In this document: positions 8,901 to 50,127 of the stretch, one piece after another | Numbering within the stretch: position 1 is the first letter of the stretch | Layout of the letters: each line of letters starts with the position of its first letter | DNA from: Candidatus Peribacter sp. | GTDB taxonomy: Bacteria > Patescibacteriota > Gracilibacteria > Peribacterales > Peribacteraceae | Direction: 5' to 3' | NCBI GenBank assembly: GCA_030647195.1 | Contig: JAUSKD010000010.1 | Coordinates: 197 to 64,196, forward strand | Length of the DNA stretch: 64,000 nucleotides | The notes under the pieces: generated by a model | Told to the model about the DNA's origin: nothing | The model's input: the letters and a program-made list of their open reading frames with translations, nothing else | The model's database searches: none | Position numbers and translations under genes: made by a program

Positions 8901-9623
8901 GGGCGACGGGCAGTATCCCTCGAGCAGTTTCATGGGGTCCGCAGGAACCGAGGCAGGACGATTGGCCCAATCCTTGAGACAGGTATCCGTCCACGCGAGG
9001 AAGGTGCGCGCGCCCATACGGACGTTCGTGGTGATGCCTTTCACAGAGCCGTTCCTGCCCGCATCACTGTCGGTGCAGCGACTGCCAATATAGAGCGGAG
9101 TGACCAGTTGTCCTTTCAGGGACGTGCCCGGAGTGGTGCAGCGGCAGCCGGTGCACACCTGGCCATCACGGCAATTGGCATTGGTTTCGCATTCCTCGGC
9201 CCCGGGGAGCAGATAATCCATATCAAAGGTCACCGAATCGTTCGTGGGGGTGGCGGTCTTCAGAAGCGTATCGACCACGCGGTCACCGTCCGTGTCCACC
9301 CACAGAGAATAGGTTTGGGCATCGGTGGGCTTGCCCTGGGTGGTCGAGAAGGTTGCCCGGTTGAATCGAACGCCACTGGGTTGCTCCGCGCGCGCCTCGA
9401 AACGCAGCATCGTGACGTTCTTTTGGTTCGAGACGACCGTATCGGTGGTTGCGAGGGCTTTTTGCGAAACGGTCAGTTTCACCCCCGGCACATCGGTGAT
9501 GATCTGGGCAGTCGGTCGCAGCATCACGCGATTAAGTGCGAAGAGAACGATAACGGCGCACAGTAAAAAAAGCAGAAGGAGCGGGAGCTTGATCCTTCTG
9601 GGCGGAGTTGAAGAACGTGCCAT
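5946..9623 (-). CDS. large N-terminally anchored extracellular protein with Cys-rich central region and beta-rich flanks
   Basis: ATG c9623 (MARSSTPPRRIKLPLLLLFLLCAVIVLFAL is a signal-anchor). The central part has CGDGIVQTNEKCDDGNLVKGDGCSDTC, CGNGRIESPEECE and CGNGLPDPGEECDG, which are Myxococcus cysteine-rich repeat-type (TIGR02232-like), plus many other Cys knots. There is no C-terminal TM. Confidence 0.8.
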   Translation of the reverse strand: MARSSTPPRRIKLPLLLLFLLCAVIVLFALNRVMLRPTAQIITDVPGVKLTVSQKALATTDTVVSNQKNVTMLRFEARAEQPSGVRFNRATFSTTQGKPTDAQTYSLWVDTDGDRVVDTLLKTATPTNDSVTFDMDYLLPGAEECETNANCRDGQVCTGCRCTTPGTSLKGQLVTPLYIGSRCTDSDAGRNGSVKGITTNVRMGARTFLAWTDTCLKDWANRPASVPADPMKLLEGYCPSPFSYGQVTYPNMVTCALGCEDGACREALLRSVVLERSDVRVSYAKSFSECATLMSEQGQALHTGSFFCNMNESVTRSVSDIPLVEGQRVKLCRSNGTGCSTLVTVKRVAACGDGIVQTNEKCDDGNLVKGDGCSDTCQIQAEGTRCISPSDCPSSLVCSTKYGVCNHITCPPGVACRNVCSGTCVQPRMSSSSSVAWFRSSSSISNQCDTSQPTQLCPPGYSCLAMCSNGRCFNADHIDCRDGSTPEYSATSCGTAACRGKCARCVGSSSSYSSASSLAFCKDSDGGKIYGVKGHTVGVSPATGEVYEGDDICGDDTNPYAKKGYLVEHFCDGVYHTNEVVKCPNGCSDGACRPEPVVCGNGRIESPEECEVGFVCTGGRICELGTCLCKPSQCGPSSSSSAFSSVSSEQRCAPDGKRVYGSPVFGPTECCSKNAGIKPNSVLAGNECVSTSDGSIGTCIENWWKTCGDGTCDASTEDKCSCLKDCAGGPVCGNGLPDPGEECDGSGCDTGMTCVNCRCLPTGSCGNGFVDTAPSVVFEVHADIASSFTGPQLQLQFNSIGGEDALTGRDLVGLSTNGFCNTNSQSCEMSLTTVNSTLFSLHRQGDLYVTLDSQTIGARQLLAGTLNEPILRVKLHAENEDIDVTALVLTASGGQANSVDSFELWQEGATQSLATSGYCDSEYAAGTFCFSMNSQQLVVPKGSDIKLLVKPRMKSDVNGAVSGDTIAVFIDSVTLPTSVRARGLISSNELLINNGDMIAEGEIFVGRTTAASMNVRVVGNFNTTVLAKIVSIANGGQATGTVPSGADREIGSFAFAASPNANSKNGLNQAELSDLIFTVNATNVALDATGFRIYNKAASMSQREMCLPYSLQGTALTGTVTGVFLVQCSMPSTSAVNSTIDSGGSITLALLGNITNSNTTASSGGSSILQVSLNNFSDPRRTDFGPMSLPTKSFLRWKDRDNASSSVWTWVESPDSAVNSTVFRG

Positions 9624-9690
9624 GATGAAACAGGAACGAAATATTACATCGGATACTATCCTTCTCTCATCCATGCGCAACGTTGCAGTT

Positions 9691-13452: not shown

Positions 13453-13517
13453 TGTCATCCTGAGCTCTGTCGAAGGATGATTTGGAGTGTCATGGTTCGA
13501 CAGCGCTCACCATGACA
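13453..13517. repeat. REP-like intergenic palindromic element, copy B
   Basis: Sequence is tgtcatcctgagctctgtcgaagga...gtgtcatggttcgacagcgctcaccatgaca. It contains a 9-bp hairpin stem (tgtcatggt/accatgaca) and lies between convergent clpP and a membrane-protein gene. Confidence 0.7.
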
Positions 13518-13522
13518 CAACA

Positions 13523-13960
13523 CTACTTCTTGGCGGGTGTGCAGCAGCCGTTTTCGCAGCACGCGTCGGAAATCTTGGTGATCACGATGAGGGCGATCAG
13601 CCAGATGAGCGCGTTCACAGCGGGTTGCATGGTTTCCGAAAGCGGCAGACCCGACAGAACGGACTTGAGGAGCATGCCGGCCGGAATCGATCCGAGCGCG
13701 ATGCTCGAGGCCCAGAGGGCGATCTCGGTGAACATGTGGAGCACGAGCAGGGCACCGCCGACGATCATCAGTGCCGGCAGGATGTACGCCCAGAGCGTTC
13801 CGGGAAACGAGAGAAACGCGAGGTCCTCACTGACCATCCCCACGAAGGATTCGAATGTCATGTAGTGAATGAGTCCGACGAACACGAGCGAGGCGCCCAG
13901 ACTGATGCGTGCGACGGTTCCGACGATGCAGAGGGGGCACTGAGGCAACTTGAGTTGCAT
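13523..13960 (-). CDS. small 4-TM membrane protein with N-terminal CPLC and C-terminal CCENGCC motifs
   Basis: ATG c13960 (MQLKLPQCPLCIVG...), 145 aa with four hydrophobic segments. The track's longer 265-aa form runs into the divergent tgt promoter region. Family uncertain (DoxX/MauE-like is only a guess). Confidence 0.6.
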   Translation of the reverse strand: MQLKLPQCPLCIVGTVARISLGASLVFVGLIHYMTFESFVGMVSEDLAFLSFPGTLWAYILPALMIVGGALLVLHMFTEIALWASSIALGSIPAGMLLKSVLSGLPLSETMQPAVNALIWLIALIVITKISDACCENGCCTPAKK

Positions 13961-14086
13961 AGGGTGGGATGGAATGAAGTGATCTTGAGTATGGAGGGAG
14001 CCGTGAACTTGTACAATATATTTGTTCACAATGAACGAAATCCGCAAGACAAATCTGCGATACCGGACCGTCACCACCCTACAATC

Positions 14087-15184
14087 ATGCCGATGTTCAG
14101 TGTGAAAAAGGTTTCCCCTCTCGGCCGGCGCGGTACCGTTCAGACGAACCACGGGCCGATCGAAACCCCGTTCTTCTTCCCGGTTGCGACAGCCGGTGCC
14201 ATGCGCGGCATCACGCATGCCGACTTGAAGGATCTGCAGGCGCAGGCCCTGCTCTGCAATACCTACCACCTCCATCTGCATCCCGGGGAAGAGGTGATAG
14301 CGTCCGCGGGCGGACTGCATTCCTTCATCGGATGGAACCGGCCGATCCTGACGGACAGCGGCGGCTATCAGGTATTCTCATTGCGGGGACTGCGGCACAT
14401 TTCTGATCGTGGCGTCGAATTTCGCGCGCACACGGACGGCAGTTCACATTTTTTGGGACCGGTGGAGGCGACGCAGATCCAGTGGAAACTGGGCGCAGAC
14501 ATCATCATGTGCTTCGACGAGTGTCCGCCCTCAACCGCTTCGCGCAGGGAAATCGAGACGGCCGTGGACCGGACATTGCGTTGGGCAAAAGTGTGTAAGG
14601 AGACGCACGAAAAGCTCGGGAAATCGGGAACTGGGGAACTAGGGAATTTGAAAAGCAAGCCTCTGCTCTTCGGCATCGTGCAGGGAGGACTGCATGTGGA
14701 CCTACGCAGGAAGTGCGCTGAAGAGCTGCAGTCGATCGGCTTTGACGGATATGCACTGGGTGGCCTCGCTGTCGGTGAGAGTGAAGATGAGATGCTGGCT
14801 GTCCTGCGTGAGGTGACTCCCCTTCTCCCCGAGGACCAGCCCCGCTATCTGATGGGGGTTGGCGTCATCCATCAGCTGAAAGCCTGCGTGTCACTCGGCA
14901 TCGACATGTTCGATTGTGTCCTGCCCATGCGCATAGCCCGACACGGGACGATCCTGCTTTCGGATGGCACTGAAATCCGCATCACGAATGCGAAGTTCAA
15001 AGAGGATCACGCACCGATCGACCCTGCCTCCCCGTCCGACTTCAGCAGGACGCACACGCGCAGTTACCTTCATCACCTCTTTCACGTGAATGAGCGCCTG
15101 GCCGAAACCATTGCCTGCAAACAGAACCTGGGTGTGACACTGAAAATGATGCGCGATCTTCGCACGAAGATGGACAGTCTCTAA
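14087..15184 (+). CDS. tgt: queuine tRNA-ribosyltransferase
   Basis: TPFFFPVATAGA, LLCNTYHLHLHPG, LTDSGGYQVFS, FDECPP and GLAVGE. The track's 565-aa form has a non-homologous N-terminal extension. The start is ATG 14087 or, more likely, ATG 14093, which lies 7 nt after TACAAT. Confidence 0.9.
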   Translation: MPMFSVKKVSPLGRRGTVQTNHGPIETPFFFPVATAGAMRGITHADLKDLQAQALLCNTYHLHLHPGEEVIASAGGLHSFIGWNRPILTDSGGYQVFSLRGLRHISDRGVEFRAHTDGSSHFLGPVEATQIQWKLGADIIMCFDECPPSTASRREIETAVDRTLRWAKVCKETHEKLGKSGTGELGNLKSKPLLFGIVQGGLHVDLRRKCAEELQSIGFDGYALGGLAVGESEDEMLAVLREVTPLLPEDQPRYLMGVGVIHQLKACVSLGIDMFDCVLPMRIARHGTILLSDGTEIRITNAKFKEDHAPIDPASPSDFSRTHTRSYLHHLFHVNERLAETIACKQNLGVTLKMMRDLRTKMDSL

Positions 15185-16550: not shown

Positions 16551-17012
16551 ACGAGGACGACAGTGTGAATGATAGCTGGCTGCCATACCACTTGCCTGCC
16601 CGTCCGACTTGTCCGGCGAAGCCCGAAGGGCGAAGTCGGAAGCTCGAAGCGAAGAGCGAAGGCGGGGCGACCCCCCAACGAATGGAACGGAAAACAGGCA
16701 GAAGATACCCTTCAACTGCATTTTGTCCAAATCAGTCAATATACTTGTAATTCCCAATGCATTCTTCTTTCCCCTCTTTTTCCCGTCACCGATCTTCCGT
16801 CGGAGCCATTGAGCAGTTCAGCCCAGTATATTCTGTTAAATACAGAATTTGACAAGTGTGTTAAATATTATTAACGGGACGTGAAATTTTGCCTAATCAA
16901 AAACAAGATCTCGATTGTTGACTACAGAGAGTTTCATTGACATTAAGAACCATTAACGTAGGATTCCATCCTTTATGGCAATTGTCCATCCTCCATCTTC
17001 CCCCATGCCGCT

Positions 17013-20000
17013 ATGGCAAAAATAGAAAACGCGAAGAAGCCCTTCGCCATTTTTGTTCTGTCGCTTCTTCTGCTCTCGCAACCGGGAGTCTCTGCGCTCT
17101 GGGCTCAGACTGCCGTGATCGCGCAAGAGACCGGTGCCGCGTCATCCGAAGCGGAATCATCTTCGGCCGCTTCGAACCCGCAGACTCCTTCGGTTTCAGA
17201 CATGAGAGCCATGACCAGCGCCATGGCGAGCACGACTGCGGGCGGAGGCAATTTTACGTGGCAGATTCTGTGTGGAGAGCCCGGGACGAACAGGAGCATC
17301 GCCTGCGATGACGCCTGTCGCCCGTGCATCAGTGATACTTACTTCTTCTGGAGAAAATTCGATCTGCAGAAAATCGGCTTCTACTACACGGACGGATCGG
17401 GACATCGCCAGCTCCTTCCGCCGTTTTCAACCGGAGGGAATATCTGCAGAGACGGCGTGTCAGCGATAAACGGGGGCGGAACGGTTCCCACAGGAATCAC
17501 CCCTCAGGGCCTGTATACCGAGTGGAATGCCTACGGTCATGTCTACACGTTGTACTCCGATACGCATGCTGCAATCGTGTGCCCGAGAGGCGGCGATCGC
17601 ACGGATTACTACTGGGACGACCAGGGGAATCCCGGCACGCACAATGACGGCCATGTGATCATCAACTACACGCCAGCACCCTCCAGTCAGTGCTCCGATG
17701 GCATCGATAACGACGGAGACGGCGCAGCGGATTTTCCGAATGATTACTCCTGCTCCACGACCACGGACAATGACGAAACGAATCCCAGGTCTCAGTGTCA
17801 GGATGGAGTGGATAATGACGGCAACGGATACACTGATTACCCTTCCGATGCAGGATGCAGCTCGCAGCAGGACAACACGGAGAGCGGGGGCCAGCAGCAG
17901 TACCAGTGTAACGACGGTATCGACAACGACGGGGACGGAGCCGCCGACTATCCGAACGATTTCTCCTGCTCGTCTGCCACGGACAATGATGAAACGAATC
18001 CCAGATCTCAGTGTCAGGACGGAGTGGATAATGACGGCGACGGCGTCACGGACGGACTGGATCCGGGTTGCAGCGGCAATCAGGACAACGACGAGCGCAA
18101 CATCTGCCCTGTGGGCACTTCTACGAGCACCTGCCGCTGTGCCACCAATGCCGATTGCACCGCGCCCAATACCTGCCAGAGCGGATACTGCCGGCCGGTC
18201 AGCAGCCAGTGCTCCGATGGCATCGATAATGATGGCGATGGCGCTACGGATTACCCGGCCGATTTCAGCTGTTCCTCAGCAACGGATACGGACGAGACCA
18301 ATCCCAGGGCCCAGTGCCAGGATGGATCGGATAACGATCACGACGGTCTCTCAGACTACCCCAATGATCCGGGCTGCAACTCAGCCCAGGACAATGACGA
18401 AACGAATGTGGGTACACCGTCCTGCACCCAGCCTGTCAGTGCATCCGTGTCCTTCAACTCCTTCAACGCTCCGTGGAATTACGGTACATCGTGCGCCCAA
18501 CCGCCCGTTGCCGTTGCGACGAACCTGCATGCCGGCGACGTTGTGCGACTCACAGGCACGACGGGTGGGGTCTGCGGACGCGAGTACCCGCGTGCGGGAT
18601 CCTGTGTCAGCGATACCTCCGGCTCCATTTTCGGAGACTGTGATGACGAGGGAACCCAGATGTACTCCTGCACGGACAATACCTATTCCAAGGCGGGATT
18701 CTACGATGCCTCACATAATCTCATTGCCGAGCACAACATCAGTGCGTTCAACGCGAGCGTCACGGTCCCTGCGGGAGCGACGGCGCTCTACGTATACTTC
18801 AAGGAATACAACCAGACCTACTACTACGACAACAACGGTGGATTCCGCTGCAATCTGAATTTCTCCATCACGGGCAACTGTCCTGCGCAGTGCAATGACG
18901 GCCTCGACAATGACGGTGATGGCGCCGCGGACTATCCCAATGACTTCAGTTGTTCCTCCGCAACGGATACCGACGAAACGAATCCCAAGGCCCAGTGCCA
19001 GGATGGCATCGACAACGACGGCGATGGCCGCATCGATGCCAATGATCTGGGGTGTACCGATTTTCAGGATAACGATGAATTCAATGCGTCCTCCTCTTCC
19101 TCATCATCCTCCTCCGTTCCGGGAACCGCACAGTGCAACGACGGCATCGATAATGACGGTGATGGCAAGATCGACGCTCTGGTCGAGCTGAGCCCCTCAA
19201 ACGGGCAATCGCGCGTGTGGTATGCCGATATGGTCGGTATTCGCACCTTCTACAACCAAATTGCTGCCCAACGTGGACTGCAACAGATTTCCACTGATTG
19301 GAACGGCCAGGGCATGGTCAGCAACGATGCGACGACAGCGGATAAGATCTGCGAGCTTGCCGGCTTCAACAACGTCGTCTCCCGTAACTGCTTCGAATAC
19401 GGCACAACCGGGCGCTGCAACTTCACGAGCTGCAGTAACAATACGATGGGTGTCTGGGGCGGATCCAACATGAATATTGTGAATGCATGCGGCTACACCT
19501 GGCTCGCCTCGCTCACCTGCCGCGATCGTCTGGCTGCCTGCAGTGATGGCATCGATAACGACGGAGACGGCAGAATCGACATGGCGGACACGGGCTGCGC
19601 AACGGTGAATGACAACAGTGAAATCATGCATGACCCGGACTGCACAGGACCGACGGATAACACCGAATCCTCCATTACGCAGTGCAACGACGGCATCGAC
19701 AATGACGGAGATGGAGCCGCCGACTACCCGAACGATTTCTCCTGCACCTCTCCCACGGATACGGACGAGACCAATCCCAAGTCCCAATGCCAGGACGGCA
19801 TCGACAACGATGGAGATGGTCTGTCCGATTACCCCTCCGATCCGGGATGCAGCTCGAGGCAGGATAATGACGAGCGCAATATCTGCCCCGCAGCGACGCA
19901 AACCTCCAACTGCCGTTGCGCAACCAATGCGGACTGTACGAACCCCGATACCTGCCAGAGCGGCATCTGCCGCCCGGTGTCGTACCAGTGCAACGACGGA

Positions 20001-23000
20001 ATTGATAACGATCAAGACGGTGCAACGGATTTCCCGAATGATTTCTCGTGCACGACTGCGACCGACAATGACGAAACCAATCCCAAGGCCCAGTGTCAGG
20101 ATGGCGTCGACAATGACGGCGATGGCCGCGTGGATTATCCGAATGATCTGGGATGTTCCAGCAGACAGGATAATACGGAGGCGGGTGAAGCCCAGTGTCA
20201 GGACGGCATCGACAACGACGGAGACGGCGCCGCCGACTACCCGAACGATTTTTCCTGCACCACTCCCACGGATACGGACGAGACCAATCCCAAGGCGCAG
20301 TGCCAGGACGGGATTGATAACGATGGAGATGGTCTGACGGACTATCCCAATGATCCGGGATGTTCCAGCCGTCAGGATAACGACGAACACAACATCTGCC
20401 CGGTGGCAACGCAGACAAGCACCTGCCGTTGTGCAACGAACGCAGACTGTACGAACCCGGATACCTGCCAGAGCGGCATCTGCCGTCCGGTGACGTACCA
20501 GTGCAACGACGGCATCGACAATGATGGAGATGGCGCCACGGACTACCCGGCGGACTTCTCGTGCTCCGGACCCACGGACAATGATGAAACGAATCCCAAG
20601 GCCCAGTGTCAGGACGGGATCGATAACGACGGAGACGGACGTGTGGATTATCAGAATGATCCGGGATGTTCCAGCAGACAGGACAACAATGAAGGAGACG
20701 AACCGCAGTGCCAGAACGGCATTGATGATGATCAGGACGGAGCCACGGACTACCCGGCGGACTTCTCGTGCTCCGGACCCACGGACAATGATGAAACGAA
20801 TCCCAGAGCGCAGTGCCAGGATGGAATCGACAACGACGGGGACAGTCTTGTGGACTATCCCGCAGATCCCGGCTGCTCCACTCGTCAGGATAACGACGAG
20901 CACAACATCTGCCCGGTGGCAACGCAGACGAGCACTTGCCACTGTTCCACGAATGCGGACTGCACCGTCCCCGATACCTGCCAGAGCGGCATCTGCCGCC
21001 CCCAGGGAGCCGATCTCTCCGTCTCAAAGACCGGACCCACCACGGTGGTCGCAGGCACGATCGTATCGTACACAGTGACAGCGACGAACGCCGGTCCGGC
21101 CACAGCCACGAACGTCGTGATCGCCGATGTCATTCCCTCGGGCCTGACCTTCAACGCCGGTCAGTCGACCGCAGGATGCGTGCTCAATGGAAATGGAACG
21201 AGTGTGCTGTGCAATAACTTCAGTCTGACAGCGGGCCAGAGCCGCACCTTCACGATTGTCTTCAATGTTCCTTCAACGCAAGCGTGCGGAGGGAACGCGG
21301 TGATCCAGAACGTGGCGACAGTCTCCAGTTCTTCACAGGATCCGAATACGGCGAACAATACGAGCCAGACGGTGACAACGGGGGTGTCGTGTCCGACACC
21401 GCAAGCCGATCTCTCGATTCAAAAATCAGGACCTTCCTCCGTGCTCCGCGGTGACGCTGTGACCTACACCATCACTGCAACGAACGCAGGCCCGAGTACC
21501 GCAACGAACGTCGTGGTGACCGATGTGATCCCGTCCGGTCTCACCTTTAACGCCGCCGGCTCTTCCGCGAGCTGCATCCTGAATGGCGCCGGAACGAGCG
21601 TGCTCTGCAACAACTTCAACCTGAACGCGGGCGAGAGCCGCACCTTCTCTCTCGTGTTCACCGCTTCCTCCTCGATGAGCTGCGGAGCAACCATCCGCAA
21701 TACCGCAGATGTCTCGAGTTCCTCGGTGGATCCCGTCAGTGCCAATAACCATAGTAATGAGGTGAGTACGTCCGTGACGTGCCCGCAGGCGGACGTGATG
21801 ATCGTGAAGAGCGGACCGCAGAGTGTCAATCGCGGCGGGAATATCCTCTACACGGTCACCGTCACGAACTTAGGTCCCCAGCGCTCCGATAACGTCGTCG
21901 TGGTGGACCGGCCGGAATCTATGGCAGGACTCACCTTTAGCGCGTCTCAGAGCGATACGGACTGTGTCCTGAACGGCACCGAAGTGCTCTGCAACAACAT
22001 CTCGCTGCAGGCCGGTCAATCCCGGACGTACAACATCGTCTTCACGGTTTCCCCCACCTTTACCTGCGGCAGTACGGTTGCCAATCGGGCGAATGCCAAT
22101 GTCTCGACCCCCGATCCTCACGGCGATAACAACTGGAGCGATCGCATTGTGACGACCATCAACTGTACGCAGTGCAATGACGGCATCGACAACGACCAGG
22201 ACGGCGCCACGGACTACCCGGCGGACTATAGCTGCAGTGATGCCAATGATAACGACGAAACGCTTCCCCGGGCCCAGTGCCAGGATGGCGTGGACAATGA
22301 CGGCGACCAGCTCGTCGACTACCCGAATGACCCGGGCTGCTCGAACAATCAGGACAATGACGAATCCAACATCGTTCTGAATCCGGATGCGTCCATTCAG
22401 AAATCAGGACCGACGACGGTCATCCGCGGCAACACAGTGAGCTACACGCTCACGGCAACCAACGTCGGCTCCGCGACGGCGCAGAACGTCGTGGTCTCCG
22501 ATAGCATTCCCTCCGGACTCACCTTCCAGGCAGGCGCCTCCTCACCCGAGTGCGTGCTGAATGGCGGCGGCACGAGCGTACTCTGCAATAACTTCTCGCT
22601 CGCTGTCGGCCAGACCAGAACCTTTACGGTGACCTTCACGGTGACCACGGCTGTTGCCTGCGGTGCCACCATTCAGAATACGGCGACGGTCTCGACCAGT
22701 AACGATGTCAATACTGCGAACAACTCGAGCCAGTGGAATACGGCCGTGCAGTGCGTTACGCCCCAGTGCTCCGATGGCATCGACAATGACGGCGATGGTG
22801 CGACGGATTATCCCAATGACTACAGCTGTGCCTCCCCCACGGATGATGATGAGTCCAATCCCCGGGCCCAGTGCCAGGACGGCATCGACAATGATCAGGA
22901 TGGCGCCATCGATTACCCCGCCGACATCGGCTGCACGTCCGCGCAGGACAATGACGAATCCAATCCCGCCACGCCCGATCTGTCGATCACCAAGACCGGT

Positions 23001-26000
23001 CCCCAAACCGTGAATCGCGGCGATACGGTGAGCTACACCGTGACCGTGACGAACATCGGAACGGCTACGGCCCTCAACGTCGTTGTGGCGGACGTGATTC
23101 CGGCAGGACTCACCTTCCACGGAGGCCTTTCCTCGACCGACTGTCTGCTCAACGGAGCCGGCACGAGCGTGCTCTGCAATAACTTCTCGCTCGCTGCAGG
23201 TCAGACGAAGACCTTCACCATTACCTTCAATGTCCCCACCACCACGGTCACCTGCGGTTCGACGATTCGCAATACCGCGACCGTCTCGACCAGTAACGAC
23301 CAGAACGGTTCCAATAATACGAGCCAGACGGTGAGCACCTCGGTGCAGTGTCCGGTGCAGAGCGCCGACCTTGGCATTAGTAAAACGTCCAATGTGTCTT
23401 CCGTGCTGTCCGGTGATCCGGTCACGTACACGCTGAACGTCACGAACAGCGGACCGCAATCCGCTGCAAACGTTGTCATCAGTGACTCCCTGCCTGCCGG
23501 AGTGTCCTTCGATGTCCTCTTCCTGCAGACAAACGGTTTCTCCTGCTATCGCCAGTCGAGCGACGCGAATCATCTGGTCTGCGTGCGACCTGCGATGGCA
23601 GTCGGCGAAACGGTGACCATCCGCTATCAGGTGCGCGTCCTCAATCAGGGAACCTGCACGCCACGCTCGCTCACCAATACGGCCGGCGTGACGGCTCTCT
23701 CGGGTACGGATCCGAACGCGGGCAATAACTACGCCCAGGCCACGGTGCAAATGACCTGTCCGAACCTTCAGTCAGACCTCTCGATTCAGAAATCAGTCAG
23801 TCCGTCCTCCGTCCTCCCGGGCCAGCCCCTGACGTACACGCTCTTCGTGCAGAACTTCGGGCCGGGCACCGCGCAGAATGTCATCGTGTCCGATTCGTTG
23901 CCTTCAGGACTTCCCATTACCGTCCAATTCCTGCAGTCCGACGGCTTCAGCTGCTGGAGACAGAATAGTGATCCGAATCACCTGGTCTGCACGCGTTCAT
24001 CCATGCCTGCAGGTGCAACCGCCACGATCCGCTTCACGGCGACCGTGAGCGGCAATAGCTGTACCCCACAAACCGTTCTCAATACGGCTGCCGTGAACGC
24101 ACTGAACAGCACAGATCCGAACGCAGGGAACAACGCCACACAAGTTACGGCCCAGCTGACGTGCCAGAACCCGGTCTTCACGATCTCGAAGACGGACAAT
24201 CGCGACACGACACACCCGGGCGATATCCTTACCTACAGCATTACGGTGACGAATACCTCTGACGTGAACGGCACGAACGTGACCGTGACCGACCTGCTCC
24301 CCGGCTCTGTGACCTTCCTCACCGCATCGGATTTCGGTTGGTCCTCCGGCGGCAGTGTCACCTGGCAGAATCTCTCGATCCCCGCGCATACGACGAAGAC
24401 GCTGACGGTGACCGTGCAGGTGCAGTACGGCACAGCGAACGGAACCGTGCTCACGAACAATGCGACAGTGGCGGGAATCACCGCGCAGGACCAGACAACG
24501 GTTCAGAGCGTCACCACCGCTGATCTCTCGATCATGAAGACCGGTCCGCAGCTTGCCCAGCGCGGTTCCACCATCTTCTACACCATCACGGTATTCAACG
24601 CCGGCCCCGGCTCTTCGCAGAATGCGACGGTGACCGACGTAGTACCGGGCGGCCTCGTCTTCCTGCCACAGCAGTCCACACCCCAGTGCGCGCTGAACGG
24701 CGGAACAGTGACCTGCAGCGGTATTTCACTCGCAGCCGGTCAGAGCCAGAGCCTGACGCTCGCCTTCGAAATCCCCTCCTCTGTCACCTGCGGCACGTTC
24801 CTGCTCAACGCGGCCGAAGTGCACGGCATCAATGATCCGAACTGCGTGAACGACCTGAGCCAGACCGTGACCACAGCGGTGCAATGCCTCAGCCCGACTT
24901 TCACGATGAGCAAGACGGACGGCCACACGACCGCGCAACCCGGCGACACGCTGACGTACACGGTCTCGGTGACGAACACCTCTACGGTGAACGCAACGAA
25001 CATCACGGTGACGGATACCCTGCCCTCCCTCGTCACGTTCCAGAGCGCCTCTGACGGCGGAACGCAGGCGGCAGGCGTGCTGACATGGTCCGGCCTCAGT
25101 ATTGCAGCCGGTGCGACCAAGCAGCTCACGGTGCAGGTGCAGGTGAGTCAGGCGGCCACAAACGGGGCGATCATCACGAACTATGCAAGTGTCGCGGGTG
25201 TCCTTGCGCAGGATTCCACGACCGTACAGGTGCCCCAGACCAATGCGGATGTCTCTGTGATGAAGACCGGCCCGCAGACGGCCCAGCAGGGCAGCATTGC
25301 GCTCTTCGCGGTCACCGTCTTCAATGCGGGACCGTCCGCAGCGACGAACGTCGTCATCGGTGACGTGATCCCGTCGGGATTCACCTTCAATCAGGCGCAG
25401 ACCTCGTCGGGATGCGTGCTGAACGGTGCCGGAACATCGGTGCTGTGCAACAACTTCTCGCTGACCAACGGACAGAGCCGCAGCTTCACGATTGCATTCA
25501 ATGTGACGCAGAACGCCACCTGCAACGGTGTCGTGCAGAATACGGCCACCGTTTCGACCAGCAATGACACGAATCCGGCAAACAATGTCAGCCAGCCGGT
25601 TTCCACCACGGTGCAATGCCCCTCCCCCACCTTCACGATCACGAAGACCGACAACCAGACGACCGTGCAGCCGGGCGGTGTGCTCACCTACGTGGTTTCG
25701 GTGACCAACACCTCGCAGATCGCCGCAACGAACGTCACAGTGACGGATACGCTCCCCTCCCTCGTCACGTTCCAGAGCGCCTCTGACGGCGGAACGCAGG
25801 CGGCGGGCGTGGTGACGTGGTCCGGCCTCAGTATTGCAGCCGGTGCGACCAAGACGCTGACGGTGCAGGTGCAGGTCAGCTCTGCGGCCAGCAACGGAAC
25901 GGTCCTCACCAATAACGCAGCCGTGTCGGGCGTGCTGACATCGGATACGACGACCGTGCAGACCCAGACTCCCACTTTCACTATCAGCAAGACTGATAAT

Positions 26001-28016
26001 CAGACCGTCGTGCTACCCGGTGCGACCCTGTCGTATACCATTTCCGTAACGAACACCTCTGCGGTGAACGCGACGAACGTGACGGTGACGGATGCACTGC
26101 CCGGACTCGTCACATTCCTGAGTGCCTCTGATGGGGGTACACAGGCGAGTGGCGTGGTGACGTGGAATGGCCTCAGCATTGCAGCCGGTGCGACGAAGGT
26201 ACTGACCGTCCAGGCGCAGGTGAGCTCATCTGCCACGAATGGCACTGTCCTGACCAACACGGCAACCGTTGCCGGTGTCTCGGCTCAGGATACGACCACC
26301 GTGCAAACGGGCGCGACCGGAGCGGATCTCTCTATCACCAAAACAGGGCCGAGTACCGTCCAGCAGGGCGGCGTGGTGCTGTACAACGTGACGGTCAGTA
26401 ACGCGGGACCGTCCGCAGCGACGAACGTCGTCATAGCGGATGTGCTACCCTCTGGCCTCACCTTCAATCAGGCTCAGACCTCCTCGGGATGCGTGCTGAA
26501 CGGCGGCGGCACATCGGTGCTGTGTAATAATTTCTCGCTTGCAGCCGGCCAAAATCGCAGCTTCACGATCGCGTTCACCGTGACGCAGACCGCAGCGTGC
26601 AACGCCTCGATCCAGAATACGGCAACGGTCTCGACCAGCAACGATCAAAACGGCCTCAACAACACCAGCCAAACCGTGAACACGACTGTGCTGTGCCCTG
26701 AAGCCACGTACACGATCAGCAAGACCGACAACCGCACGACGGTGCTGCCGGGTGAATCATTGACCTACCAGATCACTCTCACGAACACGTCGTCCTTTAC
26801 AGCGACGAACATCCAGGTCACGGACGCGCTGCCTTCGGGCGTCACGTACGTCACGTCTTCTGACGGGGGTACATTGAACGGCGCCACCGTACGCTGGACG
26901 CTCGGTAGTCTCGCCGCAGGCGCGAGCAGGACGCTCATCGTGATTGTCACCGTGCCCTCTACGGCTTCGAATGGAACCGTGCTGACGAATATCGCATTGG
27001 TCGGTGCAGCCACCGCTCAGGATGTGACCACGGTGAATACCGGCAGTTCGAGTTCCAGTTCCAGCACCAGCAGTTCCAGCAGTAGCAGCTCGAGCGAATG
27101 CAACCTGACGGTGACGCTGCGAGATTCCCAGGATCCCGTCGACTCGGATGAGTCCTTCACCTACACCATCGAAGTCCGCAACAACAACTCTACGACGGTG
27201 AATAACGTCGCACTCACGCAGACCCTGGATAGCAACGTCGACTTCCTCTCGACGACGGGAGGCGGCAACGATGACGCCGGCAACACGATCCGCTGGACCG
27301 GCCTCTCTATCGGCGGCAACTCCACCTCGACATTCACGACATCCGTGCGCGTGCGCGGCGACCGGGACGGCGCGACGATTCGCTCTAACGCCTTCGCCTG
27401 CAGTGCGCAGGATAGCGAGAACACCCAGGTGAGCGGCAACGATATTCCCCCTCCGCCTCCCCCTCCGCCCAACGGAGCCACGCTCACTGTTGATAAGCAG
27501 GCGGATCGCACGGAAGCCCAGGCCGGCAGCATCATCGCCTACACCATATCCGTGCGAAACCAGAGTAACGTCGCCGTGGGTCCCGTCACGATAGAAGACA
27601 CCTTCTCCGCAAGCGACATGACCGTGGAGTACGCCGATGGCGGCTCCGTAAACGGAGGCTCGATCCGGTGGGATCTGGGAACGCTGGGCGCCAACGCCAC
27701 GCGCCTGATCCACTACCGTGTGCGCCTGAGCCAGAGTCTGCAGCATGGCCAGACCGTCAGCAATACCGTGCAGGTGCTGGGCGGCAACGCCACCGATACC
27801 GCACAGGTGCAGATCATCCGCTACTTCCCCCAGACGGGTCTGCTCACCCGCTTCACACAGCTGGGAACAGATAAAGCGGCCTTCCTGCAACCGGTGAGCC
27901 CGAAGAAACGTAATGCGACGGATGCCAGCATCCCTGCCCTCACATGGATGATCCTCCTCTCGACCGGTCTCACGGGCGGTGGACTGCTCGGCAGAAAATT
28001 CCTCATTGGCTTCTAA
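17013..28016 (+). CDS. giant (3,667 aa) modular surface protein: acidic Cys-bounded Ca/metal-binding-like repeats plus DUF11-type repeats
   Basis: Single uninterrupted 11,004-nt ORF with signal-like N-terminus MAKIENAKKPFAIFVLSLLLLSQPGVSALWA. By my count it has 24 copies of C-x-[DN]-G-x-D-[ND]-D-x-D-G-x-x-D-[YF]-P-x-D-x-x-C (thrombospondin type-3 / MopE-like). It has 4 copies of ICPxxTxTSxCxCxTNADCTxPxTCQSGxCRP and 17 DUF11-like repeats (TxTNxGP..NVVVxDxIPxGLTF). It also has poly-Ser and P8 linkers, then FPQTG followed by a C-terminal TM and GRK. Confidence 0.9.
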   Translation: MAKIENAKKPFAIFVLSLLLLSQPGVSALWAQTAVIAQETGAASSEAESSSAASNPQTPSVSDMRAMTSAMASTTAGGGNFTWQILCGEPGTNRSIACDDACRPCISDTYFFWRKFDLQKIGFYYTDGSGHRQLLPPFSTGGNICRDGVSAINGGGTVPTGITPQGLYTEWNAYGHVYTLYSDTHAAIVCPRGGDRTDYYWDDQGNPGTHNDGHVIINYTPAPSSQCSDGIDNDGDGAADFPNDYSCSTTTDNDETNPRSQCQDGVDNDGNGYTDYPSDAGCSSQQDNTESGGQQQYQCNDGIDNDGDGAADYPNDFSCSSATDNDETNPRSQCQDGVDNDGDGVTDGLDPGCSGNQDNDERNICPVGTSTSTCRCATNADCTAPNTCQSGYCRPVSSQCSDGIDNDGDGATDYPADFSCSSATDTDETNPRAQCQDGSDNDHDGLSDYPNDPGCNSAQDNDETNVGTPSCTQPVSASVSFNSFNAPWNYGTSCAQPPVAVATNLHAGDVVRLTGTTGGVCGREYPRAGSCVSDTSGSIFGDCDDEGTQMYSCTDNTYSKAGFYDASHNLIAEHNISAFNASVTVPAGATALYVYFKEYNQTYYYDNNGGFRCNLNFSITGNCPAQCNDGLDNDGDGAADYPNDFSCSSATDTDETNPKAQCQDGIDNDGDGRIDANDLGCTDFQDNDEFNASSSSSSSSSVPGTAQCNDGIDNDGDGKIDALVELSPSNGQSRVWYADMVGIRTFYNQIAAQRGLQQISTDWNGQGMVSNDATTADKICELAGFNNVVSRNCFEYGTTGRCNFTSCSNNTMGVWGGSNMNIVNACGYTWLASLTCRDRLAACSDGIDNDGDGRIDMADTGCATVNDNSEIMHDPDCTGPTDNTESSITQCNDGIDNDGDGAADYPNDFSCTSPTDTDETNPKSQCQDGIDNDGDGLSDYPSDPGCSSRQDNDERNICPAATQTSNCRCATNADCTNPDTCQSGICRPVSYQCNDGIDNDQDGATDFPNDFSCTTATDNDETNPKAQCQDGVDNDGDGRVDYPNDLGCSSRQDNTEAGEAQCQDGIDNDGDGAADYPNDFSCTTPTDTDETNPKAQCQDGIDNDGDGLTDYPNDPGCSSRQDNDEHNICPVATQTSTCRCATNADCTNPDTCQSGICRPVTYQCNDGIDNDGDGATDYPADFSCSGPTDNDETNPKAQCQDGIDNDGDGRVDYQNDPGCSSRQDNNEGDEPQCQNGIDDDQDGATDYPADFSCSGPTDNDETNPRAQCQDGIDNDGDSLVDYPADPGCSTRQDNDEHNICPVATQTSTCHCSTNADCTVPDTCQSGICRPQGADLSVSKTGPTTVVAGTIVSYTVTATNAGPATATNVVIADVIPSGLTFNAGQSTAGCVLNGNGTSVLCNNFSLTAGQSRTFTIVFNVPSTQACGGNAVIQNVATVSSSSQDPNTANNTSQTVTTGVSCPTPQADLSIQKSGPSSVLRGDAVTYTITATNAGPSTATNVVVTDVIPSGLTFNAAGSSASCILNGAGTSVLCNNFNLNAGESRTFSLVFTASSSMSCGATIRNTADVSSSSVDPVSANNHSNEVSTSVTCPQADVMIVKSGPQSVNRGGNILYTVTVTNLGPQRSDNVVVVDRPESMAGLTFSASQSDTDCVLNGTEVLCNNISLQAGQSRTYNIVFTVSPTFTCGSTVANRANANVSTPDPHGDNNWSDRIVTTINCTQCNDGIDNDQDGATDYPADYSCSDANDNDETLPRAQCQDGVDNDGDQLVDYPNDPGCSNNQDNDESNIVLNPDASIQKSGPTTVIRGNTVSYTLTATNVGSATAQNVVVSDSIPSGLTFQAGASSPECVLNGGGTSVLCNNFSLAVGQTRTFTVTFTVTTAVACGATIQNTATVSTSNDVNTANNSSQWNTAVQCVTPQCSDGIDNDGDGATDYPNDYSCASPTDDDESNPRAQCQDGIDNDQDGAIDYPADIGCTSAQDNDESNPATPDLSITKTGPQTVNRGDTVSYTVTVTNIGTATALNVVVADVIPAGLTFHGGLSSTDCLLNGAGTSVLCNNFSLAAGQTKTFTITFNVPTTTVTCGSTIRNTATVSTSNDQNGSNNTSQTVSTSVQCPVQSADLGISKTSNVSSVLSGDPVTYTLNVTNSGPQSAANVVISDSLPAGVSFDVLFLQTNGFSCYRQSSDANHLVCVRPAMAVGETVTIRYQVRVLNQGTCTPRSLTNTAGVTALSGTDPNAGNNYAQATVQMTCPNLQSDLSIQKSVSPSSVLPGQPLTYTLFVQNFGPGTAQNVIVSDSLPSGLPITVQFLQSDGFSCWRQNSDPNHLVCTRSSMPAGATATIRFTATVSGNSCTPQTVLNTAAVNALNSTDPNAGNNATQVTAQLTCQNPVFTISKTDNRDTTHPGDILTYSITVTNTSDVNGTNVTVTDLLPGSVTFLTASDFGWSSGGSVTWQNLSIPAHTTKTLTVTVQVQYGTANGTVLTNNATVAGITAQDQTTVQSVTTADLSIMKTGPQLAQRGSTIFYTITVFNAGPGSSQNATVTDVVPGGLVFLPQQSTPQCALNGGTVTCSGISLAAGQSQSLTLAFEIPSSVTCGTFLLNAAEVHGINDPNCVNDLSQTVTTAVQCLSPTFTMSKTDGHTTAQPGDTLTYTVSVTNTSTVNATNITVTDTLPSLVTFQSASDGGTQAAGVLTWSGLSIAAGATKQLTVQVQVSQAATNGAIITNYASVAGVLAQDSTTVQVPQTNADVSVMKTGPQTAQQGSIALFAVTVFNAGPSAATNVVIGDVIPSGFTFNQAQTSSGCVLNGAGTSVLCNNFSLTNGQSRSFTIAFNVTQNATCNGVVQNTATVSTSNDTNPANNVSQPVSTTVQCPSPTFTITKTDNQTTVQPGGVLTYVVSVTNTSQIAATNVTVTDTLPSLVTFQSASDGGTQAAGVVTWSGLSIAAGATKTLTVQVQVSSAASNGTVLTNNAAVSGVLTSDTTTVQTQTPTFTISKTDNQTVVLPGATLSYTISVTNTSAVNATNVTVTDALPGLVTFLSASDGGTQASGVVTWNGLSIAAGATKVLTVQAQVSSSATNGTVLTNTATVAGVSAQDTTTVQTGATGADLSITKTGPSTVQQGGVVLYNVTVSNAGPSAATNVVIADVLPSGLTFNQAQTSSGCVLNGGGTSVLCNNFSLAAGQNRSFTIAFTVTQTAACNASIQNTATVSTSNDQNGLNNTSQTVNTTVLCPEATYTISKTDNRTTVLPGESLTYQITLTNTSSFTATNIQVTDALPSGVTYVTSSDGGTLNGATVRWTLGSLAAGASRTLIVIVTVPSTASNGTVLTNIALVGAATAQDVTTVNTGSSSSSSSTSSSSSSSSSECNLTVTLRDSQDPVDSDESFTYTIEVRNNNSTTVNNVALTQTLDSNVDFLSTTGGGNDDAGNTIRWTGLSIGGNSTSTFTTSVRVRGDRDGATIRSNAFACSAQDSENTQVSGNDIPPPPPPPPNGATLTVDKQADRTEAQAGSIIAYTISVRNQSNVAVGPVTIEDTFSASDMTVEYADGGSVNGGSIRWDLGTLGANATRLIHYRVRLSQSLQHGQTVSNTVQVLGGNATDTAQVQIIRYFPQTGLLTRFTQLGTDKAAFLQPVSPKKRNATDASIPALTWMILLSTGLTGGGLLGRKFLIGF

Positions 28017-28039: not shown

Positions 28040-28061
28040 CCCCGCCTCCGGCGGGGTTTTT
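28040..28061 (+). terminator. intrinsic terminator of the giant gene
   Basis: CCCCGCC-tcc-GGCGGGG followed by TTTTT, 24 nt after the stop. Confidence 0.8.
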
Positions 28062-34214: not shown

Positions 34215-34401
34215 GAAGCGAAGAGTACGAGAAGAAAATGTTCCCGCCTAGACTCCATGACTTGACTCGAAATATTCCTATTCACAAATAGCACTTTGAT
34301 CGAACGAGGACACAAGAAAATGAATACGCAATCGATTGACCTCAATGCAAGGAAAGTCATGTGCATCTATAAGGAGTGCACTGCTACTCTTGCGTATAAT
34401 T

Positions 34402-37400
34402 ATGCGAAAACTGCTCGGTCGCATCACCGTTTCGATCGCGCTCGTTATCGTGATGGTTCTCGTCCTGCAACAGAATGTGACGCCGAAAAAGGGGAAATAT
34501 GAGCTTGCAGCAGAGCTGATTGGAGCGAGCATCTGCCCCACGGGAACCCACGACTTTAACTGTAAGTGTGATCGGGCCAAAATCGCGTCCACAGAACAGA
34601 TTTCGGAATCAGAGGCGGGCGGCGTGAGCGTGTATTGCTGCGCGGAAAAAGAACTGGGTTTCCTCACGCGCATGAAGGATACGACCAATCCCACGGATGC
34701 CGATAACGCGTATCAGGAGCTCGTGACTTTTCTGGATGCCTACAACGGAATGAAAGACGAAGGGCCGGACCTGCTGGAAAATTGGTTGCAGAACAACTGC
34801 GATAAGGCCACCTGTGATCAGTGTGACAAATTTATCGATCTCGTTGGCGGAAGCGCCGGGAGCAATCCTTCATCGAATAATAACTCTTCGGACAACAATT
34901 CCTCGGCCAACAACTCTTCGGAGGGCGGAGGCTCTTCTCGGGGAGGCACCTCGTCGAAAGGTGGCGGCAAGTCGAGCGCCGCAGGCGGAAGTTCCAGTGC
35001 AGGGGGGAGCAGCTCGAGTGAGGCCGCATCCAGTTCCAGCGCAGAGGCGAGCTCCAGCAGCGGTCAATCCTCCTCCGGAAAGAATTCCAGCACTTCTGTC
35101 GGCAGCTCGAGCGAAGCGAACAGCTCTTCATCCGGCGACTCCAGTTCCAGCGAAGAAAGCTCCAGCAGCGAAGACTCCTCTTCCTCCGCCTCAGAAGAGA
35201 GTTCGAGCAGCGAAGAATCCTCCTCCTCTGAAGAGAGCTCCAGCAGCGAAGGTTCTTCTTCATCCGAAGGGAGCTCAGAATCCTCCTCTTCCTCCGCGAA
35301 TACGTACTACGTCATCTGCGACAAGCCGGATCCCAAGGGCTACTGCTGCAAAGCCAGTGACAAAACATCGGGGAAAAAATGCGATGCGCTGGGGAGTGCG
35401 GATACCTGCTACGACAAAGGAGCGACTCCTGCGGCTGGTGACAACAAGCCCGGCAACTGGTACCTCGCTCAGCTGAACAAAGAGGAAAAGCAGGGAGTGC
35501 AGAATAAATGTATGAAAGAGGGAGGCGGCACGGGTACCGGCGGTGCTCCCGAAGAGTGCAAGGGGACATGTGGCGACGGACGCGTCGACAAGGAGGGCGA
35601 CGCCCCTGAAGAATGTGATGAAGGAGAGGCCAACACAACCGATCCCAATACAGAAGCAGAATCCATTACCGAATCCGACAAGGCCGTCGAGAGCCGGGAC
35701 GGCACCGTGAATATCCCCAAGGGAATATCCAATGCCCGTGAATCACTGACAGGGCCGATACCCTGGAGCAAGGCCTGGGGGGATCAGTTGAAAAAAAGTA
35801 ATTGCGACGACACATGCAAATTCACCAAATGCGTCGGGGTCAATCCATCGGCCGATACTTCGGCCTGTCTTGCCATTCATACCGGTGACAACAAGGAGCC
35901 GCTCTGTCAGCCGGTCACCCATCAATTCGTGAATGGAATGGGTCCCTACCTCAAGCCGAAAGGAGGCGTGACTGACGGAATGCAGTTGACCCTCGATGAT
36001 GTCGAAACGAATTTCGGCGCGTGTTCCAATCTGCCCGGCCGCAGTACGACCGGAAAGCTGTTCGCTCTCGGCGGCGGGCAGGATGTCGGCAATCCCGCCG
36101 AGATCGACGGAGGAGTGGAGGACGATATTGAATACGCGCAGCAAATCTCCACGACGGACCTGATGGCGACTGTACTGGTTGCCGGAAAATTACTGGCACT
36201 GGATCCCGCCAATAAGTGCGATGACGGGGCGGGCAATAATGTGCCTCCGGAGGATACGGATGTGGCTGAGGGGGCAGATTGTGGAAGATACTGCTGGGTA
36301 GAGAAAGAAGGAGGAGCTCGATGCACCTTCGGAGGAGAATGTCCGAGTGGTACTTGTTACTACTTTGATGTGAATGGCAGAAAAAAACATTGTCGTGGAA
36401 GAGCGGACGGAGTGGACCTGCTCCCCGACAATAATTGTCGTGCCGATAATGGTTTTTGCGCCTCACTCGTCACCTATCACAACATGGCCACGTGCGGCTC
36501 GCGCGAAGACGCCACTGGCGGAATGATGTGGTGCATTAATCACAGCTGCAAGAAACTGGCAGTGAAGGAGCGCCGACGTTCCGACCGGCAGGACAATACT
36601 CCGGCTCCGCCTCCGGGACAGGGTGGCATGCCTCCCGGCGGCGGTGGAGGCGGAGGCGGGTATCCGAGAGGATCTTCAGGAGGCTCCACTGGAGGTGGCT
36701 CGACCGGGAGTACAGGCAGTGGCGGCAGTGGCGGCAGTGGCGGCAGCCCCGGCCCCGGAAGCAGCCGCGGGAGCAGCGTTGCCTCGAGCAGGCCCAGCAG
36801 TGCTGGTTCTAGCGGGAGTGGTGGGAGCAGCAAAGCTTCTTCCAAGTCTTCTTCCAAGAGTAGTAGTAGCAGCAAGAGCGGAAGCAATGATTCAGGTGGC
36901 GGCGTAGGGAGCAAATCTTCATCTAAATCGTCGTCCAAATCTTCTTTAAAGAGCAGCAGCTCAAGCGGCCCGAGCAGCGCAAGCACTGGAAGCGATGATG
37001 GTGGTGGAAACAGCAGAAGGAGCAGTAACGGGAGTCAGGGCTCCGGGGGCAGTGGCGGCAGTGATGGTTCAGGAGGAAGCAGTGGAAGGAGCAGCAATGC
37101 AAGTAATAGCTCTGGAGTCAGTGGCGGCAGTGCCACCAGCAGTCGCAGCAGCAGTATGCAGGACTGCTGTCGTTATTCCGCTCCGACAATCAACGGAGAG
37201 ACCGGCGAGGTGTTCTGCCGTGACGGCACCCTGCAGCCGGATGGCCGGTGCCGCAACTGCGCGGGCTGCTACAGCAGTAGTAGCAGTAGTAAGAGCAGCA
37301 GCGTTGCCGAGTGTTGTAAGTACCAAAGCCCCATTTACAATGCAGAAACGGGGGTCTGGTATTGCCAGAAGGGAGAGCTGCAGGAAGATGGCCGATGCCG

Positions 37401-40032: not shown

Positions 40033-40063
40033 ACCCAAGGGGTTCCTCCTGTTCTCATTTTGC

Positions 40064-49838: not shown

Positions 49839-49970
49839 ATACGCATTGTAACAGCTTGTCTCAAACTTCAATAATCATCGCGAAGGCAAGCTCCGCTTGC
49901 CTGGAGCGATACCTTGAAGGGAAAGAGGGTCCGTGGGAGGAAACCGACAAGGTTTCCTTCCACGCAATCG

Positions 49971-50046
49971 TGGTACCCCCGGCAGGACTCGAACCTGCGG
50001 CCAACAGGTTAGAAACCTGCTGCTCTATCCACTGAGCTACGGGGGC
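49971..50046 (-). tRNA. tRNA-Arg (anticodon UCU), CCA encoded
   Basis: Reverse complement is GCCCCCGUAGCUCAGUGGAUAGAGCAGCAGGUUUCUAACCUGUUGGCCGCAGGUUCGAGUCCUGCCGGGGGUACCA, with anticodon loop UUUCUAA. Confidence 0.9.
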
Positions 50047-50127
50047 ACGCGGACAGTTGTTAGTAGAAATTATAGCAGAGAATTCCTCTTCCTTCAGCCC
50101 CACCTCACCCGCTATACTTTCGTACCG

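Follow-up and report, generated by a model that had tools for sequence, protein, structure and literature searches.

The 64,000-nucleotide stretch of contig JAUSKD010000010.1 analysed here (the window) encodes a giant protein that we read, with a probability of about 0.7, as a surface-anchored fibre of the fibrillar-adhesin type belonging to Candidatus Peribacter, a tiny, uncultured bacterium from groundwater and a member of the Peregrinibacteria within the Candidate Phyla Radiation (CPR). For Peregrinibacteria and other CPR bacteria, a life in attachment to other cells is assumed; very little is understood of how they attach, and their giant surface proteins usually break metagenome assemblies. 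The open reading frame (ORF; 17013-28016, forward strand) has 3,667 codons, an ATG start backed by orthologues that begin with MAKIEKAKK, and no internal stop, so that the uninterrupted frame described in the original prediction is borne out. By exact sequence identity its product is MDO8468365.1, 'hypothetical protein Q7S29_01245', on a contig of 64,252 bp in a metagenome-assembled genome (MAG) of Candidatus Peribacter sp., and it is a singleton in 90%-identity clustering. Its layout is that of a fibrillar adhesin, with stalk repeats in tandem between a signal peptide and a surface anchor, and the modules follow each other in this order (window coordinates; aa, amino acids; D1-D17, the DUF11 domains; AF2, AlphaFold2; HMM, hidden Markov model):

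17013-17105 (+), Sec-type signal peptide, aa 1-31, read from the sequence, with cleavage predicted after ALWA; followed by a Ser/Ala linker
17238-17687 (+), N-domain, aa 76-225, six Cys, a globular orphan that may form a distal head
17688-18101 (+), acidic units 1-4, forming two A/B pairs (NF033662; regular expression; AF2)
18102-18206 (+), six-Cys knot 1 (ICPx7CxCxTNADCTxPxTCQSGxCRP), at aa 364
18207-18413 (+), acidic units 5-6 (regular expression)
18414-18887 (+), U1, aa 468-625, eight Cys, a beta-rich orphan (AF2 model of low to medium confidence)
18888-19109 (+), acidic units 7-8 (regular expression), then a Ser9 linker, aa 692-700, read from the sequence
19131-19679 (+), U2 composite: half of acidic unit 9 (CNDGIDNDGDGKIDAL), an alpha/beta insert of about 120 aa, and variant acidic unit 10 ending in HDPDC
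19680-21005 (+), acidic units 11-20 with knots 2-4: units 11-12 and knot 2, then two super-repeats of 171 aa holding units 13-20 and knots 3 and 4 (regular expression, repeat analysis)
19881-19985, 20394-20498 and 20907-21005 (+), knots 2, 3 and 4 within the preceding region, at aa 957, 1128 and 1299
21006-22169 (+), D1-D3, type A, four Cys each (Pfam, profile HMMs)
22170-22379 (+), acidic units 21-22, inserted in the stalk (regular expression)
22380-22763 (+), D4 (profile HMMs)
22764-22967 (+), acidic units 23-24, inserted in the stalk (regular expression)
22968-27047 (+), D5-D15, partly alternating between type A (four Cys), type A' and type B (Cys-free, with FTISKTD; CLIPPER_2-like), all eleven with the Lys/Asp/Asn triad
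27048-27095 (+), Ser16 linker SSSSSSTSSSSSSSSS, read from the sequence
27096-27446 (+), divergent D16, with the triad replaced by L3369, Q3403 and S3458 (profile HMMs)
27447-27473 (+), Pro-rich linker containing a Pro8 run, read from the sequence
27474-27824 (+), divergent D17, triad K3495, D3529 and N3584 (profile HMMs)
27825-28013 (+), C-terminal sorting domain: FPQTG, a 30-aa spacer with FLQP, a hydrophobic segment, and RK-FLIGF (tail profile)
27825-27839 (+), the FPQTG pentapeptide itself, read from the sequence
27930-27992 (+), the hydrophobic segment, aa 3640-3660, Kyte-Doolittle value about 1.3 (hand sum)

The modular reading of the original prediction (signal peptide, heads, acidic Cys-bracketed repeats, DUF11 stalk, LPXTG-like end) is essentially right, and almost all of its coordinates hold. 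The predicted signal peptide is confirmed by an n-region with Lys residues, an h-region FAIFVLSLLLLS and the ALWA|Q site at aa 31, and it includes the strongest hydrophobic window of the whole protein (aa 10-31); its sequence is conserved in other assemblies (P0022, L003, L004). The Cys-containing N-domain was found again at aa ~76-225, the paired acidic motifs as 24 units that match the expression C.[DN]G.D[ND]D, the four six-Cys knots at the positions listed, and the unique region placed at ~470-620 as U1. Likewise, the two acidic pairs said to lie inside the DUF11 array, the S16-like and P8 linkers, and the FPQTG at exactly 27825-27839 are all present. The order of the listed modules also stands, but a second globular insert, U2 (aa ~722-842), and the Ser9 linker had been missed. 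The protein contains 135 Cys, and their number is even in every module except D9, which has five. At a higher level the pair-pair-knot arrangement itself recurs as a super-repeat of 171 aa, that is, with a spacing of 513 nucleotides (nt).

For the stalk, Pfam DUF11 (PF01345) scores 931.5 bits against a cut-off of 24.6 (E = 1e-286) in 17 stretches, single domains reaching 54-88 bits, and NCBIfam adds TIGR01451 17 times and the isopeptide-forming domain TIGR04226 six times; a weak Pfam match to Chlam_OMP6 is also present. The 17 regular and two divergent domains counted originally exceed the true number by two: the divergent pair is real, and Pfam and our own profile HMMs agree on 15 + 2, a total of 17. 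Type A is about 130 aa long with four Cys and is present in eight copies, type A' in two, and the Cys-free type B, about 116 aa long with FTISKTD, in five. DUF11 has been renamed CLIPPER, and in the crystal structure 9IFR a Lys and an Asn are joined within the molecule by an isopeptide bond, with Asp as the catalytic residue (PMC12617251). A profile built from the 17 domains matches 9IFR at E = 1.3e-5, with near-invariant Lys, Asp and Asn columns that align to the triad of the structure. This triad is complete in 16 of the 17 domains, and D16 has lost all three residues together, a coordinated loss that fits residues working as one unit. From the aligned triad, isopeptide-bond formation would be expected in the 16 domains that carry it. 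For fibrillar adhesins, stalks have been described in which DUF11 alternates with DUF7507 (PMC12617251), and the A/B alternation of the present stalk matches that description.

The acidic units belong formally to the NCBIfam family NF033662 (acidic double-disulfide repeat), with a score of 327.7 bits (cut-off 41) in 18 stretches; a literature search on 'acidic double-disulfide repeat' found no publication. Twenty-three of the 24 units are complete, and the one at aa 708 is interrupted. Nearly all carry a D-N-D-G-D-G-x-x-D core, a loop of the DxDxDG type. Thrombospondin type 3 and MopE repeats had been proposed as likenesses of this core; the calcium-binding resemblance is reasonable at the level of the motif, but neither Pfam family matches: TSP_3 (PF02412) gave no hit with the complete protein at E <= 0.01 or with a single acidic pair at E <= 1, and Cu-binding_MopE (PF11617) has no match here, the model being listed for one distant relative only (P0053). 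Searches of PDB sequences with the whole protein and with unit profiles returned calmodulin EF-hand loops at E 0.03-1, which is not significant, and the flanking helix-loop-helix is absent; with the canonical-unit profile, EF-hand loops are the only matches, at E > 0.2. When the variant acidic unit is included, the profile matches the C-rich calcium-binding domain of teneurin-4 (PDB 7PLP) at E = 1.4e-3 over 23 residues, and the acidic positions of the matched unit are those that coordinate calcium in teneurin-4; for the canonical units the E-value is 6.6. The C-rich domain of teneurin-4 binds three Ca2+ ions, two of the sites being thrombospondin type 3-like (PMC9058538). The acidic core resembles the calcium loops of EF-hands, teneurin C-rich domains and thrombospondin type 3 repeats at the motif level only. 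Each acidic block contains an even number of Cys, and AF2 models the units with a predicted local distance difference test score (pLDDT) of 85-90. From these features we infer, with good motivation, that the units would bind calcium and be stapled by disulfides.

In U2, a globular insert (aa ~722-842) splits acidic unit 9 after its first half, and the same composite, consisting of an acidic half-unit, the insert and a variant unit that ends in HDPxC, occurs in at least 22 of the best 120 relatives, mostly directly after the signal peptide. The AF2 model of U2 has a pLDDT of 90.9 and a predicted template-modelling score of 0.83. Foldseek returned nothing at E <= 0.001 for it in PDB or BFVD (best E-values 2.2 and 1.1), no Pfam or NCBIfam family matches, and a comparison of the U2 sequence profile with PDB sequences found no related fold. 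An SRCR-like fold, guessed at from the sequence, was considered and is unsupported, as Foldseek gave matches at a TM-score of 0.24 only, to CD163 and enteropeptidase, both of which we take to contain SRCR domains. As judged from its model, U2 is a recurrent, confidently predicted head module without a match in the structure libraries searched.

The N-domain and U1 are orphans. Pfam and NCBIfam have no match to either; relatives of the N-domain were found only among Peribacteraceae orthologues, and no homologues of U1 were detected beyond close orthologues. Word-indexed homologue searches with each of the two domains returned nothing. However, P0022 matches the N-domain at 218 bits in a local phmmer comparison and was missed by the word-indexed search, so that this negative is weak, and negatives of that search for short orphan domains call for caution. 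AlphaFold had been proposed as a check on single modules, and AF2 gave usable models for the acidic units and U2 but not throughout: in a model of aa 70-626 the N-domain has a pLDDT of ~30-40 and is unusable, as is the knot, and U1 is marginal. Foldseek with this model gave weak matches for U1 to CUB, GOLD and PliG beta-sandwiches (E 2e-3 to 0.1, best 2.4e-3), a hint that one beta-rich domain may be a sandwich of the jelly-roll type. The N-domain and U1 show a weak similarity to each other (E = 4e-4 in a single comparison, 16 of 47 residues identical), and homology between them was set aside, the similarity being only weak and pairwise. The knots have the Cys spacing C-x9-C-x-C-x5-C-x6-C-x4-C and are present only in the closest relatives (P0022, P0054, P0067); Pfam does not match them, and a knot profile found nothing among PDB sequences at E <= 10.

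The C-terminus carries the putative anchor. The original prediction ended the protein with a transmembrane segment and a GRK tail; a hydrophobic segment followed by RK is indeed present, but it is only moderately hydrophobic (no C-terminal Kyte-Doolittle window exceeds 1.34), FLIGF follows the RK, and the spacer of about 30 aa had gone unnoted. Relatives commonly share an ending made of a final beta-strand, [L/F/I]PQTG, a spacer of about 30 aa with FLxP, a Trp, a Gly-rich hydrophobic segment and G-K/R-K/R-F. A profile built from five tails and searched with HMMER against 1.84 billion representatives defines this tail family as 111 clusters at E <= 1e-3, or 30 at E <= 1e-10, nearly all of them matching at the extreme C-terminus. 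An xPxTG motif is present in 105 of the 111 (LPQTG in 64, FPQTG in four), all but one of the 64 members with 400 aa or more (63) have DUF11-like domains, and the named members are Peregrinibacteria. The peptides IIRYFPQTGLLTRF and xLPQTGxx are candidate sortase substrates. The giant protein's own tail matches no anchor model in NCBIfam at E <= 10 or in Pfam at E <= 1, TIGR01167 and PF00746 (Gram_pos_anchor) included. A literature search on CPR sortase signals found nothing useful. Complete Peribacter genomes encode sortase A, which is reported for Candidatus Peribacter riflensis, and peptidoglycan synthesis (PMC4736985), and on this ground sortase processing of a non-canonical, long-spacer signal is favoured.

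Taken together, these modules suggest how the fibre would be built. The Sec signal peptide would export the protein, and the C-terminal domain ([L/F]PQTG, spacer, hydrophobic segment, RK) would hold the C-terminus at the envelope, where most likely a sortase would cleave it and link it to peptidoglycan. The 17 CLIPPER (DUF11) domains, which are immunoglobulin-like, would form the stalk, with isopeptide bonds probable in the 16 that have the triad and four Cys contributed by each type A domain. Distal to the stalk, about 1,300 residues with 24 acidic units and the four knots would make a strongly negative rod, stiffened by calcium and disulfides, and this rod would display the globular N-domain, U1 and U2 as candidate ligand-binding or host-binding heads. 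At an assumed length of ~4 nm per immunoglobulin-like domain, the fibre would measure roughly 100 nm. Peribacter genomes carry large Cys-rich extracellular proteins with a proposed attachment role (PMC4736985), Vampirococcus, a related predator within the CPR, has giant DUF11 proteins for which a function as host-attachment fibres has been proposed (PMC8080830), and huge proteins are enriched in Peregrinibacteria (PMC11573180); the reading as a fibre agrees with all three.

Several observations weigh against the adhesin reading. No known adhesive or ligand-binding domain was identified when the N-domain, U1 and U2 were compared with Pfam and NCBIfam, and with Foldseek at E <= 0.001; two of these three modules are orphans with low-confidence models, and U2 is without a structural match. 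The motif similarity behind the proposed calcium binding is not significant for canonical units. The tail, with its gap of about 30 residues, only RK and then FLIGF, and no match to TIGR01167 or PF00746, is not a canonical cell-wall sorting signal, and no sortase gene lies within the 64-kb window. These last two points lend themselves to another explanation, which we consider rather unlikely: that the protein is held in the membrane by its C-terminal helix, or is handled by an undescribed dedicated sorting enzyme, instead of being a classical substrate of sortase A, the LPQTG-spacer-W-TM-GKKF arrangement (TM, the hydrophobic segment) being a new sorting signal specific to Peregrinibacteria. 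The distance from motif to C-terminus (median 54 aa, minimum 47, in 105 members) and the conserved FLxP and Trp of the spacer speak for it, as do the anchor models of Pfam and NCBIfam, which stay below threshold (TIGR01167 reaches 12.7 bits against a cut-off of 15.9, and this on a relative's tail only). On the other hand, LPQTG, the canonical sortase motif, is by far the prevailing pentapeptide (64 of 111), sortase A is reported for complete Peribacter genomes, and motif, hydrophobic segment and basic residues stand in the order of a cell-wall sorting signal. A structural role, as an S-layer-like coat protein of the envelope or a sortase-polymerised pilin rather than an adhesin with specific ligands, appears to us still less probable. 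Porins associated with archaeal S-layers and the OmcB protein of Chlamydia also contain DUF11 (PMC12617251), in line with the weak Chlam_OMP6 match, TIGR04226 is named for fimbrial proteins, and the lack of a recognised adhesive domain in Pfam and NCBIfam points in the same direction. Nevertheless, one chain of 3,667 aa with three different globular inserts distal to its anchor has the layout of a fibrillar adhesin (PMC12617251), neither a pilin-type gene cluster nor a class C sortase was found nearby, and proteins with SLH domains are encoded separately at the orthologous loci.

That the long ORF or its repeat count arose in short-read MAG assembly is, in our judgement, very improbable, even though all four orthologues with an N-domain in other MAGs run open into contig ends. 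Internal repeat copies are at most 84% identical in DNA over 200-300 nt, the longest exact repeat inside the gene measures 64 nt, and the copies have diverged too far in DNA for Tandem Repeats Finder to report any array. In addition, a locus of an independent MAG (L004) runs collinear with aa 1232-2914, with 72% identity across 1,720 residues, independent assemblies have N-termini with an identical type of signal peptide (P0022, L003, L004), a near-identical tail is found in a fragment (P0142), and both flanks are syntenic with other assemblies. The GC content at third codon positions (0.73) is similar to that of the neighbouring housekeeping genes. The divergence of the repeats, the shortness of the exact ones and the collinear MAG make an artefact unlikely, and the four truncated orthologues instead suggest that this locus commonly breaks assemblies and that the full copy in the window is the exception.

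The first 1,330 aa match 2,250 proteins at E <= 1e-5, and the novelty implied by the original prediction for a polypeptide that joins acidic repeats to DUF11 is not supported: at least two acidic units together with DUF11-like domains occur in 27 of the best 120 relatives, 19 of which have acidic units between DUF11 domains, and the combination is also present in 14 of the 64 longer tail-family proteins. Two members of the tail family, P0164 (3,207 aa, with 15 DUF11-like domains and 19 acidic units) and P0172 (5,567 aa), follow the same plan. Positional orthologues are found at the syntenic locus of other Peregrinibacteria: P0140 (1,728 aa, complete) and P0091 occupy the same gene order (miaA-clpP-tgt ... 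X ... pth-lepB-secE-nusG-murJ), L003 and L004 share the upstream synteny, and orthologues at the tgt/pth-lepB-secE-nusG locus differ in module number. Given relatives with the same plan and syntenic orthologues, the giant gene is the long, complete allele of a conserved but hypervariable, module-shuffling locus, which lies between tgt and pth-lepB-secE-nusG, and not a unique mosaic.

Other endings were seen among the relatives. Eight of the 27 proteins with acidic units and DUF11 end, after two final acidic units and without the LPQTG tail, in a conserved NDRxWxDRWRExWNWNW-COOH, possibly a further C-terminal signal or anchoring motif, as yet uncharacterised; the relatives with this ending are P0024, P0026, P0027, P0029, P0030, P0032, P0049, P0051 and P0064. 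A third group (P0023, P0025, P0033-P0036, P0041, P0042 and others) consists of acidic-repeat proteins of about 800-1,500 aa without Pfam domains, in which a basic stretch of helix-like character leads into a terminal LPRFATEC[KNE]-COOH and many of which begin with a head of the U2 type.

The giant gene is flanked by mgsA, miaA, clpP and tgt upstream and by pth, lepB, nusG, an acylphosphatase gene and murJ downstream. Two further elements frame it:

16937-16964 (+), promoter-like site TTGACA-16 nt-TAGGAT, a consensus match only (10 of 12 consensus positions), about 49 nt 5' of the ATG
28040-28061 (+), terminator-like hairpin of seven G-C pairs followed by T5, 24 nt 3' of the stop codon

With both in place, the gene looks like a stand-alone transcription unit. 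The tgt ORF (13487-15184, forward strand) encodes 565 aa, of which the TGT domain covers only aa 213-562; the N-terminal extension of about 200 aa is conserved in L003 and L004 (38-48% identity), and the TGT at a more distant orthologous locus, L005, has 360 aa. A DsbA-like thioredoxin (PF13462; 33423-34214, reverse strand) adjoins murJ about 5 kb from the giant gene, and is relevant to the oxidation of the 135 Cys of the giant protein; L005 has VKOR instead.

Elsewhere in the window there are four large Cys-rich DUF4215 proteins (myxo-type cysteine-rich repeat), at 5946-9680 (reverse), 34336-40032 (forward), 39815-42400 (forward) and 56822-58849 (reverse). The start of the third is probably mis-set, as it overlaps the second by 218 nt. 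Two of the four end in a spacer-less signal, IPGQTGP or LNDTGP followed by an Ala/Gly-rich transmembrane segment and RRRR/RRKRR, which weakly resembles the NPXTG, MYXO-CTERM and PEP-CTERM models, below their cut-offs. A protein of 545 aa (51485-53122, reverse) has RTX calcium-binding nonapeptide repeats (PF00353, five stretches) and is a putative calcium-dependent secreted protein. The ORF of 381 aa at 49861-51006 (reverse), without a family match, is probably not a real gene, since it overlaps tRNA-Arg (49971-50046) on the same strand.

What the gene adds is completeness more than a new class. The window holds the only end-to-end copy that was found of the N-domain-bearing form of this syntenic, hypervariable adhesin locus, and so gives the full module order; a shorter complete orthologue exists (P0140). 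Knowledge of the protein class itself is unchanged, the gene belonging to a family that was already common in this lineage, of which it is an unusually complete member. New in it are the fold of U2, which has no match, the two orphan domains (N and U1), the knots with six Cys and the tail with its long spacer. Tentatively, two parts could even be new at the family level: the U2 composite as a new host-recognition fold of CPR episymbionts, and the tail (LPQTG, 30-aa spacer, W-TM, GKKF) as the mark of a sorting pathway specific to Peregrinibacteria, or of a subclass of sortases that follows a substrate rule of its own. The protein offers candidate head domains for host-binding tests together with a testable sorting signal, and its compact calcium/disulfide and isopeptide modules could interest protein engineers.

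Compared with known systems, the protein stands closest to the CLIPPER/CLIPPER_2 (DUF7507) fibrillar adhesins, with which it shares 17 domains above the Pfam threshold, a triad aligned with 9IFR, two alternating subtypes in the middle and C-terminal part, and a sorting signal at the end; it differs from them in the four extra Cys of type A, the acidic pairs between stalk domains, heads that are not known adhesive domains, and the CPR host. With other NF033662 proteins it has in common the alternating A/B-type units, which are also found in the 2,250 relatives, as well as its score far above the cut-off of that family, whereas the unit split by a nested U2 and the four six-Cys knots that punctuate the array set it apart. 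The CxDxxDNDGDGxxDxxDxxC motif holds the calcium-coordinating acidic residues known from the teneurin-4 C-rich domain (7PLP), but there are two Cys per unit here against six in teneurin-4, and the match of 23 residues concerns the variant unit only, so that the likeness is one of motif, with homology not established. The tail is like the LPXTG sorting signal (TIGR01167/PF00746) in having xPQTG, a hydrophobic segment and basic residues, LPQTG being the commonest form in relatives, and unlike it in the conserved hydrophilic spacer of about 30 aa, the weak Gly-rich segment, the G-K/R-K/R-F ending and HMM scores below threshold. Finally, the giant Cys-rich proteins of Candidatus Peribacter riflensis (PMC4736985) and the giants of Vampirococcus (PMC8080830) come from the same or a sister lineage and are likewise exported, variable between strains and proposed to act in attachment; the architecture described here was not dissected in those two studies, and the Cys-rich DUF4215 proteins on which they lay emphasis are encoded by genes of their own, four of which lie in the present window.

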